IMG/VR virus record: IMGVR_UViG_3300029305_005724
Coordinates: 32,001 to 96,000 of that record
Origin: a virus
Taxonomy: Duplodnaviria > Caudoviricetes
Direction: 5' to 3' (one strand)
Length of the DNA: 64,000 nucleotides
Numbering within the stretch: the stretch's first letter is position 1; each line of letters begins with the position of its first letter. Position numbers and translations under genes: made by a program. The notes under the pieces were generated by a model that worked only from the letters and a program-made list of their open reading frames with translations, ran no database searches and had not been told where the DNA came from. Positions 5,589 to 62,015 of this stretch are shown here, piece after piece.

Positions 5589-5720
5589 AGAAAGCACGAA
5601 ATATCAGAAAGCACGAAATATCAGAAAGCACGAAATATCAGAAAGCACGAAATATCAGAAAGCACGAAATATCAGAAAGCACGAAATATCAGAAAGCACG
5701 AAATATCAGAAAGCACGAAA
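5589..5720 (+). repeat. Perfect 17-bp tandem repeat AGAAAGCACGAAATATC, 7 copies plus a 13-bp partial (iteron-like)
   Basis: Read directly; no spacers. AT-rich flank on the left and inverted repeat aaagggatct/agatcccttt (5718-5740) on the right. Confidence 0.97.
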
Positions 5721-5817: not shown

Positions 5818-6255
5818 AAGAGCTTGCTGAATGGTATCATATAATATATTGTCCACCACGATATATCGCAATGTGTACCCCAAAGCATAACAATTGATAC
5901 ACACTTTCCATAAATTTATTAAATTATAGCAAATTCGCTTATCTGAAGCCTGACGTTGTGTCTTATGAGAAGATTATTTATTTAGGGGCTAAATAGTGAT
6001 ATAGCATTTCTATACTAATAAATTTCGAGAGATACGGGTTTAATCTCTCTAATTCGGATACTGATTGGTTTTTCACTTCCCCAAATCAAGTCCTTTAAAT
6101 TGTTATCTATTATACACAAAGCCACACCCCCACTGATGATATTGTTCCCATTTTCACAAAATCCCCAGTGAGCTCTTAAGATCTTTTAAATCCTTCGGCC
6201 GAAGGTAATGCAGATAGAGGTTTATTTCTTTTTCCTCTATCTGCATTTTCTTTTT
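5818..6255 (+). ncRNA. Candidate structured non-coding RNA
   Basis: Late promoter at 5807-5818. 5' taagagct pairs with agctctta (6171-78). Internal stems, no long ORF, and a 14-bp terminator stem at 6207-6247 with T-tract. Confidence 0.45.
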
Positions 6256-7059: not shown

Positions 7060-7180
7060 AAGGTTCTGTTTCATAGCCTAAAAACGCGTTTCATTTCAGA
7101 CTCTATCCTCAAAGAGTCAAAACACCTTCCTTAATTATATAAAATACCGGATAGCGTAAAACGTTATCCGGTATACTTTT
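7060..7180 (+). ncRNA. Candidate small RNA with anti-SD/anti-ATG tracts
   Basis: Late promoter 7049-7060 directly after the upstream stop codon. tttCAT occurs twice, CCTC sits in a hairpin loop, CACCTTCCTT follows, terminator at 7144-7180. Confidence 0.4.
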
Positions 7181-18623: not shown

Positions 18624-20402
18624 ATGCTTACTCAGAGAGAACTTGTTGCAAACTTTATCCGAGATAAGAGAGAGCCGTTTAATCCTCTCTTTTTCAAACG
18701 GGATGAAGATGAAATTGTTACTGAATTGATGAATGTTATTTATTCTTGTGAACGTGAGAATCAATACTTCACAATTAAAGTTGATTCGTATCGAGTCGTA
18801 GATAACTATGAAGAGATTAATAATATCCTTTATCATTATTACGAAGATCTTACGAAAAATAAATCAAAATCAAAGAAAAGGGACAATCAATATGCATTCA
18901 TAAATCTTAATGAATCCTGTATCAGACTTTTGATTGTTCGCTATTATATAAAAGATAGGAATGAAGAAGACTATCTCGACGTTCTTATCGCAATTCCAAG
19001 AGTTATTGATAAGTACTATTTCAAAATAAATGGAATTATGCGTTCCACATTATTTCAGATTGTTGATGGTAGTACCTATAACAATGGAACTTCAAATGCG
19101 AAAGTCCCTAGTATTACGCTAAAGATTATATTCATGGCAGTACGTGTTAGCAGATACTATAATACATTAAAGACAACAGAAGGTGAAGAGCTTAGAATGA
19201 CTTATTACCATTCTAGAATCTTTAATAAAGGTATTGCTGCTGCTAAATATATCTTTGCTAAATTCGGGTATTATGGAGGTCTAAATTTCCTTGGTCTTGA
19301 GGGATCTATCTATCTTACTAGAGAAGACCCGCATGATTCAGATATGTACACCTTCAAAGTGCATGAAAATGCATATATAAGCAGTCCTAAGTTTCTTGTA
19401 GATAGAAATGTAATGCTGCAATCTGTAATTGTAACCCTTTATAATAGTATTATTGAAGGAATTCCTTTTGAAACTCTATTTGATAATCTTTATTGGGTTA
19501 GAAATCTCGGTGCTGAATTTAGTGGTGGTGATGAACGACTTGTATCAGTATATGATGAAGAAGATGATACCACCCCTGATACTTTAGACAAAGGATATAG
19601 CATTCTTGACTCGTTTGAGTCCATTTATGATATCAGTACAAAACGTTCTATCAAACTTCCTGAAGAGGATAAAGAAACAACGTATCATGTACTAAGATGG
19701 ATTATGAGAGAATTTAATGCTCTTCGTCTTAAAGATAACCTTGATATTAGATGCAAAAAGATTCGTTTTGCTGAGTATATTGCATCTCTTTATGCATTTA
19801 AGATTGCAAGAGGTATTTATCGTGTTTCTGATATGAATAAGAAAGCTAGTATTCTTAGCATTCGTAAAGCTATTAGAACCGACCCTAATTATCTTCTTGT
19901 GGCAATTACCAAATCCAAAATGGTATCATATAGAAACATGGTTTCTGATCTTGATGCTATGCAGGCTCTTAAGTACACTTACAAAGGTGTATCTGGCCTT
20001 GGAGAAAATTCAAATAATTCTATTCCTGATATCTATCGTTCTATCCATCCTAGTCATATTGGTCGTGTAGATCTTGATGCATCTAGCGATGGAAATCCTG
20101 GTATTACAGGAACTCTTTGCCCCTATGCTCCAGTGTATGATGGATTCTTTGAAGACTATCATGAACCAAATGCATGGGCATCAGAGTTTATGGAAACTAT
20201 GGAAGAATATAAGAAAGCTCAAAATCTTAAAGATGCTTTGATCTTTGAAGAGAGAATTTTGGGTAAAGATAAGACGGAAGAGATAGAAGTGACGTCTGAA
20301 ATCATTGCCTCGATGCAACAAATTATTAAACCAATGATTTTTGCAGATCAAGGCGAAGAAATCAGTATGGAGGACGTGCTCTATGGCTCAAACAAAAATT
20401 AA
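18624..20402 (+). CDS. RNA polymerase beta subunit, N-terminal half
   Basis: IPR....YFKING (RpoB region A). RSIHPSHIGRVDLDASSDGNPGITGTL corresponds to [24 protein letters not shown]. Confidence 0.88.
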   Translation: MLTQRELVANFIRDKREPFNPLFFKRDEDEIVTELMNVIYSCERENQYFTIKVDSYRVVDNYEEINNILYHYYEDLTKNKSKSKKRDNQYAFINLNESCIRLLIVRYYIKDRNEEDYLDVLIAIPRVIDKYYFKINGIMRSTLFQIVDGSTYNNGTSNAKVPSITLKIIFMAVRVSRYYNTLKTTEGEELRMTYYHSRIFNKGIAAAKYIFAKFGYYGGLNFLGLEGSIYLTREDPHDSDMYTFKVHENAYISSPKFLVDRNVMLQSVIVTLYNSIIEGIPFETLFDNLYWVRNLGAEFSGGDERLVSVYDEEDDTTPDTLDKGYSILDSFESIYDISTKRSIKLPEEDKETTYHVLRWIMREFNALRLKDNLDIRCKKIRFAEYIASLYAFKIARGIYRVSDMNKKASILSIRKAIRTDPNYLLVAITKSKMVSYRNMVSDLDAMQALKYTYKGVSGLGENSNNSIPDIYRSIHPSHIGRVDLDASSDGNPGITGTLCPYAPVYDGFFEDYHEPNAWASEFMETMEEYKKAQNLKDALIFEERILGKDKTEEIEVTSEIIASMQQIIKPMIFADQGEEISMEDVLYGSNKN

Positions 20403-21943: not shown

Positions 21944-22066
21944 GAATACTGCTACTTCCTGTAGGAGTAGCAGTATTTATTTTTGTCATAAGAGTTTATT
22001 TTTATACAAATATAGACTCTTCAACAACATAATAAGACAATATCGAATGATATGGAGGTGTTTTTA

Positions 22067-24781
22067 ATGAAATTCGCATCTATATATCTTTCAAATTATA
22101 TAGGAATTTATAATGGTATGGGTTTATATGAAATCCATATCGATATGAGTAAGTGTAAAAATCGTATAACCATTATACGTGGTGATAATGGATCCGGAAA
22201 ATCTACACTATCAAAGGCAATGAGCCTTTTCCCAGATCCTACAGATTCATTTATTCCTGGAATGCCGGCTAGAAAAGAGATAGTTCTTGTTGATGGAACT
22301 ACTCTTTATAAACTTTCTTTTGTTCACGGTGTAACAAAAAATGGTGATAGAGAGCCAACAAAAGCATACATTACCAAAACATTTGGTGATCAAATTATTG
22401 AATTAAATGAGAATGGTAATGTAACCTCATTTAAAGATATTCTTTATTCTGAGCTTGGACTTGATGCTAATTTTGCAGCTCTATCTCAATTAAGTAACGA
22501 TGATAGAGGTTTAGCAGATAAACGTCCTGCTGACAGAAAAAGATTTGTAAATTCTATTATTTCATCTTTAGATGTGTATAATGGTATTTATAAAACTTTA
22601 ACAAAAAGGTCTTCAAATTATAAATCTATGATAAATGCTGTTGTTGGAAAACTTAATGTATTGGGTGACGAAAATTCGCTTAATGCAAATTTAGAAGCTC
22701 TTGAAGAAAAAATAAATGAGTTTCAAAATAGAAAAGATGCTGCAGTTGCTGCTCTTGCAAAAGAGCAATCAACGATACAGCTTCTTGATCCTGATGGCTC
22801 AATTCAAAATGCTAATGCTTTAGTTATTGCGGAGCTTGAATTAGCTGAAAAAGATGCGCGCCAGATTCAGTCTATTATAGATGGACTTGTCATAGATAAT
22901 GGTATTAAAGTATCTGATTATTATAAAGGATATAAAATAACTGTGGATAACAAGAATTCATTAATTATAGAAAACCAAATTGCTAGAAATAGTATCGAGT
23001 CTTTGATGCGGCAAAAAGAGCAAGAAGCTGAAGAGCTCTCTGGAAAGATCCAAAAACTTAATTCTTTACAGAGCGGTTATAAATATGAGACTCTAAAATC
23101 TAAAGTAGATGAGTATGCAAAAGAACTTGGCACTATTGAAGCAACGTTTAGAGAAATTGGAATTCTAGATATGAATTCTATAAATAAAGAAGAGTATATT
23201 CTTGCGCTAGAGACCTTAAAAGATCTAGATATGTATATTTCTTCTTTTAAAGATTCTGTAAGATTAGAAGTATTAGAATCTATTGTAAATGAATATATGC
23301 AAACTGGAATTATTCCAGAAAGAAAGAATCCTGCTATGATTAGTCGCGAAATTAAGAATGCAGAAAATGAAATCGATGGCTGCAATCTTGAAAAAGCGGC
23401 TATTAATTCTAGAATTGGTTTGCTCGATAAATTAAAACTCAGACCTGAAGGATGTGTTGATAATACTTGTCCATTTATAAAAGATGCATTAGAATTTTCT
23501 GCTGGAAATCCTAAAGATCGATTAGATAGTCTTGATGCTCTTATATATTCATTAAAAGGATTTATTAATATAGAGAATGAAAAGCTTACAGATGTAGAAG
23601 AGTATAATAATGCAATAAATCAATTTGCTATTATTGTACGAGAAATTGATAAGAATGGGGCTGTACTGTCCAAGATGCCAGAAGGAGAAATGTTTAAAAA
23701 TAAATCTATCTTCTTTAGTCGACTTATTCAAGGTTATAGTTTTGAGTACATGCGTCATATTTATAAATATATTGATATGGCTAATCTATTCGATACCTAT
23801 AAACAATATAAAACTATTTATGATAGTTATAATGAAGAGCTTAAATCTTATGAAGGAAAAGTTGAAATCATTATTGCATTAAATGAAGATATTGATAATA
23901 TCAATAAAACTATTAACGCTATAATGGACAAGATAGATCCTATAAATAAAGAAATTCTTGAAAGAGAAATAAAGATAGCTCAACTTCAAGAGCTAGAAGG
24001 TGTCTATAATGCTATTATAATTCAATTAGAAAAGAAAGCCCCTATTGAAGCTAAAATAGCGGATTGTCGTTCTAAACTTCTAGATAATAATAGAAAAATG
24101 AATGACATTAATTCTGCATTAGCAAGAGCGGAAACAGCAAAAGAAAGTATTAATCAATGTAACTTTGCTTTAGCTCCTCTCATGAAAGAAAGAGATAAGG
24201 TATCGCATTCTGTACAAATGATGAAAGATTATCTTACTGAAAAAGAAGAACTACAAGCAAATTATGACTTTATAGAAACCATTAAATACTACTCGTCTCC
24301 TACAACAGGAATACAATTGGTATTTATGGAACTTTATATGGGTAAAATCATTGCATTAGCTAATGAACTATTGTCATTACTATTTAATGGGCAATTTAAA
24401 ATTCAGCCGTTTGTTATTAATGAATCCGAATTTAGAATACCTTGTTTAGGAAATGGATATTTAAATGATGATATATCCTCTATGAGTAGTTCTCAGATTG
24501 GTATGATATCTATGATTCTTAGTTTTGCATTATTGCATCATTCTAGTTCTAAATATAATATTATTAAGCTTGATGAGATTGATGGTCCTTTAGACTATAA
24601 CAATCGTATGTATTTTACAGAAGTTCTTAATAGTATAATGGATATTATGGGAACAGAACAATGCATAATGATTTCTCATAACTCAGAACTTCAAATTGAT
24701 AATTCCGATGTAATCCTTCTCAGACATGATGAAAATAATATGGATTATGAAAGAGGAAATGTTATTTGGAGATTTCAGTAA
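22067..24781 (+). CDS. sbcC: SbcC/Rad50-like SMC ATPase
   Basis: Walker A GDNGSGKS, long coiled coils, central CxxxxCPF hook-like motif, signature MSSSQ, Walker B/D-loop IKLDEIDGPLD and ISH. Confidence 0.9.
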   Translation: MKFASIYLSNYIGIYNGMGLYEIHIDMSKCKNRITIIRGDNGSGKSTLSKAMSLFPDPTDSFIPGMPARKEIVLVDGTTLYKLSFVHGVTKNGDREPTKAYITKTFGDQIIELNENGNVTSFKDILYSELGLDANFAALSQLSNDDRGLADKRPADRKRFVNSIISSLDVYNGIYKTLTKRSSNYKSMINAVVGKLNVLGDENSLNANLEALEEKINEFQNRKDAAVAALAKEQSTIQLLDPDGSIQNANALVIAELELAEKDARQIQSIIDGLVIDNGIKVSDYYKGYKITVDNKNSLIIENQIARNSIESLMRQKEQEAEELSGKIQKLNSLQSGYKYETLKSKVDEYAKELGTIEATFREIGILDMNSINKEEYILALETLKDLDMYISSFKDSVRLEVLESIVNEYMQTGIIPERKNPAMISREIKNAENEIDGCNLEKAAINSRIGLLDKLKLRPEGCVDNTCPFIKDALEFSAGNPKDRLDSLDALIYSLKGFINIENEKLTDVEEYNNAINQFAIIVREIDKNGAVLSKMPEGEMFKNKSIFFSRLIQGYSFEYMRHIYKYIDMANLFDTYKQYKTIYDSYNEELKSYEGKVEIIIALNEDIDNINKTINAIMDKIDPINKEILEREIKIAQLQELEGVYNAIIIQLEKKAPIEAKIADCRSKLLDNNRKMNDINSALARAETAKESINQCNFALAPLMKERDKVSHSVQMMKDYLTEKEELQANYDFIETIKYYSSPTTGIQLVFMELYMGKIIALANELLSLLFNGQFKIQPFVINESEFRIPCLGNGYLNDDISSMSSSQIGMISMILSFALLHHSSSKYNIIKLDEIDGPLDYNNRMYFTEVLNSIMDIMGTEQCIMISHNSELQIDNSDVILLRHDENNMDYERGNVIWRFQ

Positions 24782-24848
24782 ATATTAAAGGCATGGATAT
24801 ACTCCATGCCTTTATTTTTTTTACTTATGACAATTATAACAAAATATT

Positions 24849-25252
24849 AATCAGGCTTGCGTATTGGAGTTCGCCGTGGGCGCGCAGTTGGGTTCTTTTT
24901 CATTTTGTTTCCTTTCGGGTGAAAGTTTTCCATATATACCTCTGAAGTGTTTTTACGTTTTTGCCATGCGTTGAAACTCCATTTTTTATATATCCTTTGT
25001 GAAATTTTTGCAAATCATAAAAAACTCCGTTTTTTAATATTTCTCCATACGCATTCTTTTTATCAGCCTGATTACTTACTAAGATAATAGGTCATCTGAG
25101 TCTGTCGATCTTCCTAGTCTTAGTTTGTATAATCCAAAGATCGCCAGGACGCAGCGAACCTTCAATTTTCCATTTGATTGGGGGAGGGGCGTCAATATAT
25201 CATACAAAAAATGGATACAGCAGCATCTAAGAATAGATGCTGCTGTACGCTT
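24849..25252 (+). ncRNA. Candidate structured RNA carrying five tandem antisense RBS+ATG modules
   Basis: Late promoter with +1 at 24849. Closing stems taatcaggct/agcctgatta and tgcgta(t)tggag/ctccatacgca. CAT-N5-11-(CCTTT/CCTC/CTCC) five times. Further hairpins and a terminator at about 25216-25247. Confidence 0.6.
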
Positions 25253-26212
25253 TTAATATTCATTAATCGGAACATTTCCACCTTCCATAACAAGAGGCCA
25301 AACTTGATTGATATTTCTATTTCTGGCAATACCAGCATGAATATCAATAGTAGTATCTTCAAGTAGGAATGCATCAGGCCTCGGATAGTTAGGAATGCTT
25401 GCCCCAGTACTTCTATCAATTACATCGAAATATCTTTGACCCGTGGCCTGGTTGTATTTAACAACAACCTGTATATTAGGATTCGATTCCATCCTCATTC
25501 TATTTTGTTCAGGGGTAAGTGCGGAACCACCTCCAATATTACTAGCAATCATTTCGACAGGAGCCACTCCAGGATTCTGTGAATTTACTCCGATAGTAAT
25601 ATCCTGAATAGAAGGAACGGCAGGGGTATAACTTCCAACAGGAGTGTTGACAAACGATGAATACATATCCATAATACGCATATCATCATTTTCATTTTGC
25701 TTATCAAGTTTAAGAGCTTTCATTCTATTAAGCTCAAGATTATGAGCCTGAGTAATTGTAGAATTAAGCTCTTTAATAGCAGAGATCTTTGTAGTAATAA
25801 GAGAGCTTGCTGATGCTGTAAGATTAGTAAGATACGTGAATTTATTCTTTAGTGTTTTACTAGAACGAACAGAATCAATATCCTGCTTAATTTCTGCATT
25901 AAGTTCATCTGCCTGAGCAATTGCTCCACGAATAAGAGCATTTGTTTCAGCATAAGATTTAGCATAATCAACTTCAACAACAGAAGTTGGTCCTTGAGGA
26001 GCTGGCTCGGAATCAACTCTTCCATCTATATTGAGTTTGGCTTTAACACGAGGATTAGACTTCTTTTTGTCATCTCCAGGCTTATTTCCTGAATCGATTT
26101 TTGAAGCATCATCACTATAGAAGAATCCGAAATCGACTCCTATTCCAGAGTCTTCTTTGTTTGCTGTCGTGTTGGTATCATTCATGATAAAGGGATCAAT
26201 TAATTGTCTCAT
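25253..26212 (-). CDS. Hypothetical protein with central coiled coil
   Basis: Start at MRQLIDPF after ggagg; N-terminal LIDPFIM motif. Confidence 0.8.
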   Translation of the reverse strand: MRQLIDPFIMNDTNTTANKEDSGIGVDFGFFYSDDASKIDSGNKPGDDKKKSNPRVKAKLNIDGRVDSEPAPQGPTSVVEVDYAKSYAETNALIRGAIAQADELNAEIKQDIDSVRSSKTLKNKFTYLTNLTASASSLITTKISAIKELNSTITQAHNLELNRMKALKLDKQNENDDMRIMDMYSSFVNTPVGSYTPAVPSIQDITIGVNSQNPGVAPVEMIASNIGGGSALTPEQNRMRMESNPNIQVVVKYNQATGQRYFDVIDRSTGASIPNYPRPDAFLLEDTTIDIHAGIARNRNINQVWPLVMEGGNVPINEY

Positions 26213-26533: not shown

Positions 26534-26649
26534 AAATGCACTGATTTGCTCAAAGGGCATTTATATTTTCCTTTTATTTTTGTATGTACTAAGAATGGTA
26601 ACTCCTAAAGACGAGGCATGTACTCTTGTAGTACATGCCTTTGTTTTTT
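26534..26649 (+). ncRNA. Candidate small RNA with one antisense RBS+ATG module
   Basis: Promoter AACA-N6-TA at 26523-34; gggCAT-ttatatttt-CCTTTT; terminator at 26614-26649 with no + strand gene upstream to explain it. Confidence 0.55.
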
Positions 26650-32000: not shown

Positions 32001-32846
32001 TTACTTCTTGGTATCAGGAGCAAGCTTGTTCTGAGCAAGACCAGTATTGGTATCATCAACACCAGCATACTTGTAAGTCCAGCTATTACGCTGTACCTGC
32101 TTAGCATTGCTGGAGCTGTTCATCCAGTCAAGGATCTTCTTAGCACGAGCATTTACTGCTGCACCACGAATCGGGAAGCCAGAGAACTCACAAGTGAGCT
32201 CCTGGAAGTTAACTTCGCCCTTAGAACCATTGTAGATCTGAAGCTCAGCAGTCGTAGGCATTGCACCAACGATGTAAGCTGCATTCTCTACGAGCAAACC
32301 GGTATTATCGGTATGCATGTAAAGGAAGCTGAAGCACTCCTTATTTACGCCGGCATCCTGAGGATTAATCTGATCATTATTGAAACCAATAAGACCATTA
32401 TAAGTCTTGAAGCCAGAGCTGGGGTCTCTTACAGATCTGAGGTAAAGCTCATGCATCTTAGTAAGAATAGAACCAGCCTTCTCGTAATATCTCATCGAGA
32501 ACGTAGAACCACCCTGAGCCGTAGTCTTAGTAATGAGGTTAAGGCTCTGGAGACCATTAGTGATATCCTGAGTTTCACCAGTCATGTTCTCAAGACCAGA
32601 ATCAAGTCCACGGAACTCGTACTCGAGAATGTGAATATAGGTATTAAGCAATCCAGCAATCTCTTCGTCACGGTCAGCCATTTTCTTAAGGAAATCAGGA
32701 ACCGAAACTACTACGAGATAGGGATAACCACTCTCATACAGGTCAAACTGCTTGAGCTGAGAAAAGTCCGTAGTACCACGGAACAGCGTATAAGCAGTAA
32801 GATCTCTAGGAGTTTTGAGATCGGTAAACATATTATAAGCGCCCAT
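32001..32846 (-). CDS. Tail tube protein (probable)
   Basis: Immediately downstream of the sheath gene; beta-rich with a GAMPT...ELTCEFSG tube-like ending; high-expression codon usage. Confidence 0.7.
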   Translation of the reverse strand: MGAYNMFTDLKTPRDLTAYTLFRGTTDFSQLKQFDLYESGYPYLVVVSVPDFLKKMADRDEEIAGLLNTYIHILEYEFRGLDSGLENMTGETQDITNGLQSLNLITKTTAQGGSTFSMRYYEKAGSILTKMHELYLRSVRDPSSGFKTYNGLIGFNNDQINPQDAGVNKECFSFLYMHTDNTGLLVENAAYIVGAMPTTAELQIYNGSKGEVNFQELTCEFSGFPIRGAAVNARAKKILDWMNSSSNAKQVQRNSWTYKYAGVDDTNTGLAQNKLAPDTKK

Positions 32847-48564: not shown

Positions 48565-48663
48565 AAAAAGAAATATGCGATAGTCCGAAGACTATCGCAT
48601 ACGTACTTTATTACAATGAAAGGAGATAAACAAAATGAACTTCAACCGAAAACATCTTTGTTT
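48565..48663 (-). ncRNA. Candidate small RNA with one antisense RBS+ATG module
   Basis: Minus-strand AACA-N6-TA at 48663-74, right after the upstream stop codon. The RNA contains gaagttCAT-tttgtttat-CTCCTT and ends at a cUUCGg terminator (48574-48601). Confidence 0.55.
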
Positions 48664-61933: not shown

Positions 61934-62015
61934 GAAGCTCGTGAGATTTTTTCTTTTCTGGTTTTATTCCTTTCACCCGTGTACTCAGTCCTAGAGTGCA
62001 CGGGGCTTTTATTTT
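61934..62015 (+). ncRNA. Candidate ~80-nt small RNA with U-rich anti-SD tract
   Basis: AACA-N6-TG at 61923-34; ttattCCTTTc; terminator cccgtgtactc/gagtgcacggg plus T-run. Confidence 0.4.

Follow-up and report, generated by a model that had tools for sequence, protein, structure and literature searches.

Judged from its sequence, an uncultured jumbo phage appears to make a late, stem-closed non-coding RNA that carries five mirror images of gene starts. The predicted RNA gene lies in a window of 64,000 nucleotides, the whole stretch of DNA that was analyzed (positions 32,001 to 96,000 of IMG/VR record IMGVR_UViG_3300029305_005724); coordinates are those of the window unless a genome position or another locus is named. 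The window is part of a virus record of 223,865 bases with 34.6% G+C and about 90% completeness. A 592-amino-acid open reading frame (ORF) at 18624 is 25–28% identical to RNA polymerase beta subunits of AR9, PBS1 and Staphylococcus jumbo phages, and by this likeness the source genome is that of an uncultured AR9/PBS1-like jumbo phage. Strong Shine–Dalgarno (SD) sites at the gene starts of the phage suggest a host from the Firmicutes; no host was found in scans of species genomes.

Genomic setting and predicted transcript

The array site is a 471-base gap on which an SbcC-like gene and a gene for a 319-amino-acid protein converge, with a terminator at either end. The features of the gap and its flanks are as follows.

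22052..24781, + strand: upstream neighbor, SbcC/SMC-like, about 904–909 amino acids (Pfam SMC_N, E 8.8e-11), kept in close relatives
24786..24814, no strand assigned: predicted terminator hairpin that ends the sbcC transcript and would insulate the RNA gene
24838..24849, + strand: AR9-type late promoter AACA-N6-TA, the last A (24849) being the predicted +1 (motif enrichment; sole AAC(A/T)-N6-T(A/G) in the gap)
24849..24869, + strand: 5′ arm of the closing stem, outer and inner helix (pair probabilities)
24901..24915, + strand: module 1, anti-AUG CAT 24901 and anti-SD CCUUU 24911
24931..24942, + strand: module 2, anti-AUG CAT 24931 and CCUC 24939, the anti-SD predicted to be 98% unpaired
24965..24980, + strand: module 3, anti-AUG CAT 24965 (in a loop, predicted to be 96% unpaired) and CUCC 24977; overlaps module 4
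24980..24998, + strand: module 4, anti-AUG CAT 24980 and CCUUU 24994 (sequence and fold prediction)
25016..25028, + strand: module 5, anti-AUG CAT 25016 and CUCC 25025, its UCC lying in an A6C/GU6 hairpin loop
25043..25074, + strand: 3′ arm of the closing stem, interrupted by a U-rich bulge of 11 nt (pair probabilities)
25076..25215, + strand: 3′ domain of the predicted transcript, with two helices and a junction motif, GGACGCAG, that recurs in one related phage species (comparison with relatives; no Rfam match)
25216..25256, no strand assigned: bidirectional terminator that ends the RNA (+) and the 319-amino-acid gene (−)
25253..26212, − strand: downstream convergent neighbor, the conserved 319-amino-acid protein (315 homologues)

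The 319-amino-acid protein has no match in Pfam, PHROG or NCBIfam and is of no known family. The sbcC allele of strain L055 is 2–5% divergent over its last 600 bases and 18–30% divergent farther upstream, an unevenness that suggests shaping by recombination.

The AR9 late promoter reads AACA-(6N)-TA/G, with the last base as the start site (PMC5312081). AACA-N6-TA was found 15–60 nt upstream of 40 of 204 genes, compared to one in the antisense control. The gap has a single copy of the late promoter motif, which lies on the + strand and ends at 24849, so that the +1 proposed in the preliminary description does fall on the 5′ arm of the stem. Both marks of an AR9-type late unit, the AACA-N6-TA/G promoter and an AR9-like non-virion RNA polymerase, are present. 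No late promoter was found on the minus strand of the gap, and an early-promoter matrix trained on three genomes gave best scores in the gap of 0.2 on any strand and −2.2 on the minus strand, compared to a training median of 24. The hairpin at 25216–47 was likewise recovered as a terminator and scores on both strands. Because the sole late promoter in the gap faces +, the predicted unit is probably the + strand from 24849 to this hairpin, about 405 nt. In strain L056 (2984–2987; window 25230–33), the bidirectional terminator has a loop that is reverse-complementary to the one in the window, as expected from hairpin inversion.

The long-range stem that had been described was confirmed by complementarity and by pair probabilities. 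Its outer helix joins 24848–57 to an exact reverse complement at 25065–74, and its inner helix joins 24858–69 to 25043–53 with one bulge. The closing-helix pairs have probabilities of 0.8–1.0, except for about 0.5 each at the bulged U pair 24864/65, and the first closing pair falls to 0.37 in the full transcript. Folding z-scores are −2.8 on the + strand and −2.9 on the − strand, near-equal values by which energy cannot decide which strand is used. Rfam searches of this locus and 14 related loci returned nothing close to the gathering score, and we know of no ribozyme consensus motif that fits the 3′ domain by eye. A scan for the 3′-domain motif gave 118 matches, chance-like as a set. Pairing of this motif with an 800-amino-acid virion gene (14–15-nt complementarity in two relatives, weak in this genome) was set aside, being at about chance level by a rough estimate once wobble is permitted.

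Five anti-start modules

All ten motif coordinates first reported, five CAT and five anti-SD cores, were verified within 24901–25028. With a module defined as an SD core 4–12 nt upstream of an ATG, read on the minus strand, the five modules compare to 0.47 expected in dinucleotide shuffles (n = 3000); 0 of 3000 shuffles reached five, and the opposite strand has 0. This shuffle test was post hoc and was repeated on 35 independent units (see below). The seeds of the five-module RNA are UCCU, CUCC and CCUC. Its anti-SD motifs are 60–98% unpaired according to predicted pair probabilities, and the anti-AUG motifs of modules 1 and 2 are mostly paired in the predicted fold. A sixth CAT with an adjoining CUCC (25043–48) is buried within the inner helix. 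Repeats within the element were seen neither by reading nor by BLAST against its own genome. The minus-strand ORFs that begin in the modules have 18 (MKKN), 28 (MENF), 4 (MAKT), 9 (MEFQ) and 10 (MICK) codons, as noted at the outset.

Conservation among strains and at the same locus in relatives

Four other strains show 0 substitutions over the roughly 225–227 nt of the element; the only differences are one-base homopolymer changes, as in the module 5 hairpin, whose homopolymer lengths differ by one. In the same strain comparison, 29 of 320 third positions of the neighboring gene are variable, and set against this the zero points to purifying selection on the element. The next intergenic region is also near-invariant (2–3 changes in 515 nt), so strain conservation is not peculiar to the element. 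The modules are identical in all four strains with no sign of turnover, a result that lends no support to their capture or exchange in the manner of spacers.

No exact DNA homologue of the element was found in viral contigs, and BLAST against four related genomes gave short chance matches only. Relatives that are about 62–73% identical in the neighboring protein have at least one non-coding unit in the gap, with late promoters in the same direction, and more distant relatives mostly have just a terminator or small genes there. The late promoter in the gap faces + in every relative having one. Six sequence-unrelated units at the locus, this one included, can form 9–14 Watson–Crick pairs starting at +1 to +3, compared to late mRNA 5′ ends, of which 1 in 71 reaches 9 pairs. 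Several other units at the locus fold with a bulged closing stem that is non-significant by this helix-at-+1 test. The one alignable species pair has a single compensatory change in the stem, from U-A to C-G.

Anti-SD motifs outnumber SD motifs in all seven units tallied at the locus, and the same-locus RNAs of relatives have 0–3 modules each. By these counts, the five-module array is a species-specific feature and no conserved family trait, and the conserved job of the scaffold may be something else. The expectation of a conserved stem around a variable interior thus held for the architecture, the position being kept while sequence and interior changed wholly, but not for the modules.

A dispersed set of predicted late anti-start RNAs

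Siblings of the five-module unit, itself excluded, were sought in four genomes with a rule-based filter for a late promoter followed by non-coding sequence and a terminator. Together, the 35 orphan late-promoter units so obtained contain 24 anti-start modules, compared to 6.4 ± 2.7 in 500 shuffles, of which the highest reached 15, and to 10 modules on the sense strand. This excess shows statistically that late anti-start small RNAs (sRNAs) form a dispersed set in this clade, of which the five-module RNA is the multi-module member. In a typical sibling, a 5′ hairpin is followed by an open CAU-spacer-CCUCC tract and then by a terminator; some siblings have two or three modules. The promoter-based search gave the following candidates in the window.

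26534..26640, + strand: sibling single-module late sRNA candidate, with units at the matching position in three relatives
48565..48663, − strand: sibling single-module late sRNA candidate
7060..7180, + strand: sibling late sRNA candidate with one module
61934..62015, + strand: sibling late sRNA candidate with an anti-SD tract and no anti-AUG

One sibling pair, L071:253–400 (+; genome 101253) and G002 119437 (−), conserves only the module of about 28 nt between two species; the 5′ part and the antisense frame (17 versus 125 codons) are not conserved. Conservation of the module where the rest differs argues for selection on pairing, not on peptides, in this pair. Its module is our best lead toward a specific conserved host target, and searches of phage, plasmid and viral collections gave no informative match for it.

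Candidate targets

Targets were assessed by exact match, anchored scoring and duplex energy against a null composed of reverse complements of real gene starts. The search per module proposed earlier yielded nothing above this null in the phage's own genome, about 90% complete, where the best z of the five modules is −3.0 to −3.7. For about 40 modules from four genomes, own-genome z equals the null, with one clear exception that overlaps its own gene in cis; one unit is borderline with an own-genome z near −5. No consistent preference of the modules for early over late genes was found. Of the scaffold presenting variable guides envisaged in the preliminary description, the evidence supports a stem-closed, + strand non-coding RNA with a late promoter and a module excess; none of its modules has an own-genome target above the null that would mark it as a guide for a particular mRNA.

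Module 1 matches the gene at genome 112312 exactly for 15 nt across its start, a candidate that was rejected with a score at the upper quartile of the null; for the sibling at 48565–48663, the same gene is outside the top five by duplex energy. The complement of module 1 is also an exact 23-nt real gene start in unrelated records, namely Streptococcus satellite phages (E 0.03–0.1) and one viral contig. We took these matches as a typical start site instead of targets; in its sequence, they show, module 1 mimics a common gene start. Matches of the modules to foreign DNA, in collections that lack the host genome, were only short and non-significant.

Discussion

On balance, we lean toward a trans-acting antisense RNA of the csRNA/LhrC type that silences translation of non-self mRNAs late. 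The non-virion RNA polymerase of the phage would start at 24849 and stop at the hairpin at 25216–47, and the 5′ end would pair with 25043–74, in keeping with the strong fold and with the recurrence of this architecture in relatives. The closing stem would probably shield the RNA end from exonucleases and hold the loosely folded, U-rich interior. By analogy with csRNAs, each module, with its anti-AUG, spacer and mostly unpaired anti-SD, could pair with a ribosome-binding site and start codon and so keep 30S subunits from loading. Because the modules are U-rich, G:U wobble may let each cover a class of start sites, the five would jointly sample A-rich, U-rich and mixed spacers, and several messages would be blocked at once. 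Host or other non-self mRNAs are the most likely targets, as no own gene of the phage fits better than chance in the 90% complete genome. A more specific version, in which a stem-closed scaffold at a fixed locus was loaded over evolution with anti-start guides, each for a specific host gene (for example, in defense or stress), seems to us rather unlikely; if true, one RNA would silence a chosen panel of host mRNAs and be re-targeted as the host changes.

A structured late RNA could instead have a main job other than mRNA pairing, as a protein-binding scaffold or decoy or as a structural RNA, with the modules a by-product or a minor species-specific add-on. The conserved features of the locus are the promoter and the closing stem, joined in some species by the GACGCAG junction motif; several relatives are without any module there, and other loci carry highly structured RNAs without modules. 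Against this stand the five one-strand modules, seen in 0 of 3000 shuffles, and the recurrence of the excess in 35 other units, and we regard another main job as unlikely, if a real contender. Antisense control of the phage's own mRNAs, with early genes shut off late, would fit the late timing and the 15-nt match of module 1 at genome 112312, and about 10% of the genome may be missing. The rank of that match at only the upper quartile of the null, the lack of a consistent early-gene preference of any module and the null-like z of the roughly 40 modules, whose clear exception is a cis overlap, make self-targeting distinctly unlikely.

An RNA carrying an anti-SD sequence cannot itself bind the anti-SD tail of the ribosome, so that a ribosome decoy would need the minus strand, which has no promoter. 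The cluster of minus-strand ribosome-loading sites offered as an alternative in the preliminary description is unsupported for the same reason, and a terminator lies between it and the supposed read-through. A functional minus-strand RNA, whether a CsrA-type sponge, a ribosome decoy or a cluster of peptide genes, could draw on folding as good as that of the plus strand and on six ANGGA motifs (1.5 expected), with one GGA in a hairpin loop, as for sponges of the CsrB/RsmZ type. However, a promoter for the GGA-bearing strand is absent, both late and early (best early score −2.2 versus the training median of 24), read-through is blocked by the terminator and the promoter of every relative having one faces +. 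ANGGA simply mirrors the anti-SD motifs and shows no enrichment in relatives, antisense peptides from matching positions are unlike in both length and sequence, and neither csrA nor hfq was found in the phage genome. There is little support for a ribosome decoy or for peptides, and a functional minus strand as a whole is very improbable. Short motifs, a first test that was post hoc and a sequence not alignable to other species could also speak for a chance pattern in AT-rich intergenic DNA or for decayed remnants of gene starts; the promoter enrichment, module excess, strain conservation, +1 stems and 35-unit excess each depart from chance or neutral decay, to which we give hardly any credence.

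C/U-rich anti-SD sRNAs of bacteria include RsaE/RoxS and RNAIII. LhrC of Listeria monocytogenes has several C/U-rich anti-SD seeds in one RNA (PMC4132741). The phage RNA is like the LhrC/RsaE type in its multiple single-stranded C/U-rich anti-SD seeds, some in hairpin loops; that type repeats one seed (UCCC), whereas the phage-made RNA would give each seed its own anti-AUG and its own spacer, and both the UCCC seed and a match to the family covariance model are absent from it. The csRNA1–5 of Streptococcus pneumoniae are cia-dependent trans-acting sRNAs complementary to the ribosome-binding site and AUG (PMC4507080). The phage RNA shares with them SD and AUG complementarity in an open region and a sibling set, and its single-module siblings have the same order of 5′ hairpin, open middle and terminator. 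Unlike the csRNAs, which are host-encoded, CiaR-controlled, 87–151 nt long and highly similar to one another (PMC4507080), the phage RNA has a phage late promoter, a predicted length of about 225–405 nt, five different modules inside a long-range stem and dissimilar siblings. It gave no sequence or Rfam match to csRNA models, and a phage late promoter stands in place of a CiaR-dependent host promoter. With no Rfam match and a phage promoter, the RNA is outside the csRNA and LhrC families.

Among phages, virulent PAK_P3 makes late intergenic sRNA1 and sRNA2, for which translational silencing was proposed (PMC4933390), and the jumbo phages 201phi2-1, phiKZ and phiR1-37 encode sRNAs (PMC11512511 and PMC12197685). 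Those sRNAs are similarly intergenic and phage-encoded, and late in PAK_P3; they belong to other phage groups and hosts, and the accessible parts of these reports describe no anti-SD/anti-AUG arrays and no known targets. CRISPR-type arrays also have several different short complementary segments per transcript, unlike which the phage RNA has no repeats, no signs of acquisition or turnover, no exact protospacer-like match and no confirmed effector protein. A literature search, largely of openly accessible papers, gave no precedent for a multi-module anti-start phage RNA in a stem.

Among the sRNAs of lytic phages, few have an established function (PMC4933390 and PMC12197685), and host mRNA levels are lowered by AR9-like jumbo phages (PMC5312081) by means that these papers leave unsettled. 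Recurrent late RNAs that mirror translation starts are a concrete, testable candidate for RNA-based silencing of host translation; with its five modules, the present RNA would amount to a naturally occurring multiplex antisense design. The orphan-late-promoter rule is directly applicable to cultured relatives such as AR9 and PBS1.

Other RNAs in the window and in related phages

At 5818–6200 (+), the window has a further RNA behind a late promoter, about 380 nt long, for which a 5′–3′ closing stem is predicted and which has C-rich tracts and no anti-AUG module; just upstream of its promoter, at 5590–5720, a 17-base unit is repeated eight times in tandem. L070:1860–3522 (−; genome 5860–7521) comprises a 304-amino-acid ORF, without a PHROG or NCBIfam match or a relative in species genomes, and behind it a purine-rich non-coding stretch of about 680 nt. 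In L026:1000–2440 (−), a late stem-closed unit comes after three non-coding units in tandem, each with an early promoter and its own terminator; two of the three are near-duplicates. In the late RNA of L048, L050 and L068, a 24-nt stretch with a GUGGUA loop does not vary between species, against a divergence of about 20% elsewhere; this stretch is no anti-start module. At the same locus as the five-module RNA, a related species (L013:2845–3200 (−), also L059–L067) has an RNA of about 350 nt behind an early promoter, in which 18 of 85 predicted pairs show compensatory changes and CUCUUC/GAAGAG may form a pseudoknot; with no Rfam match, it looks like an undescribed structured RNA.
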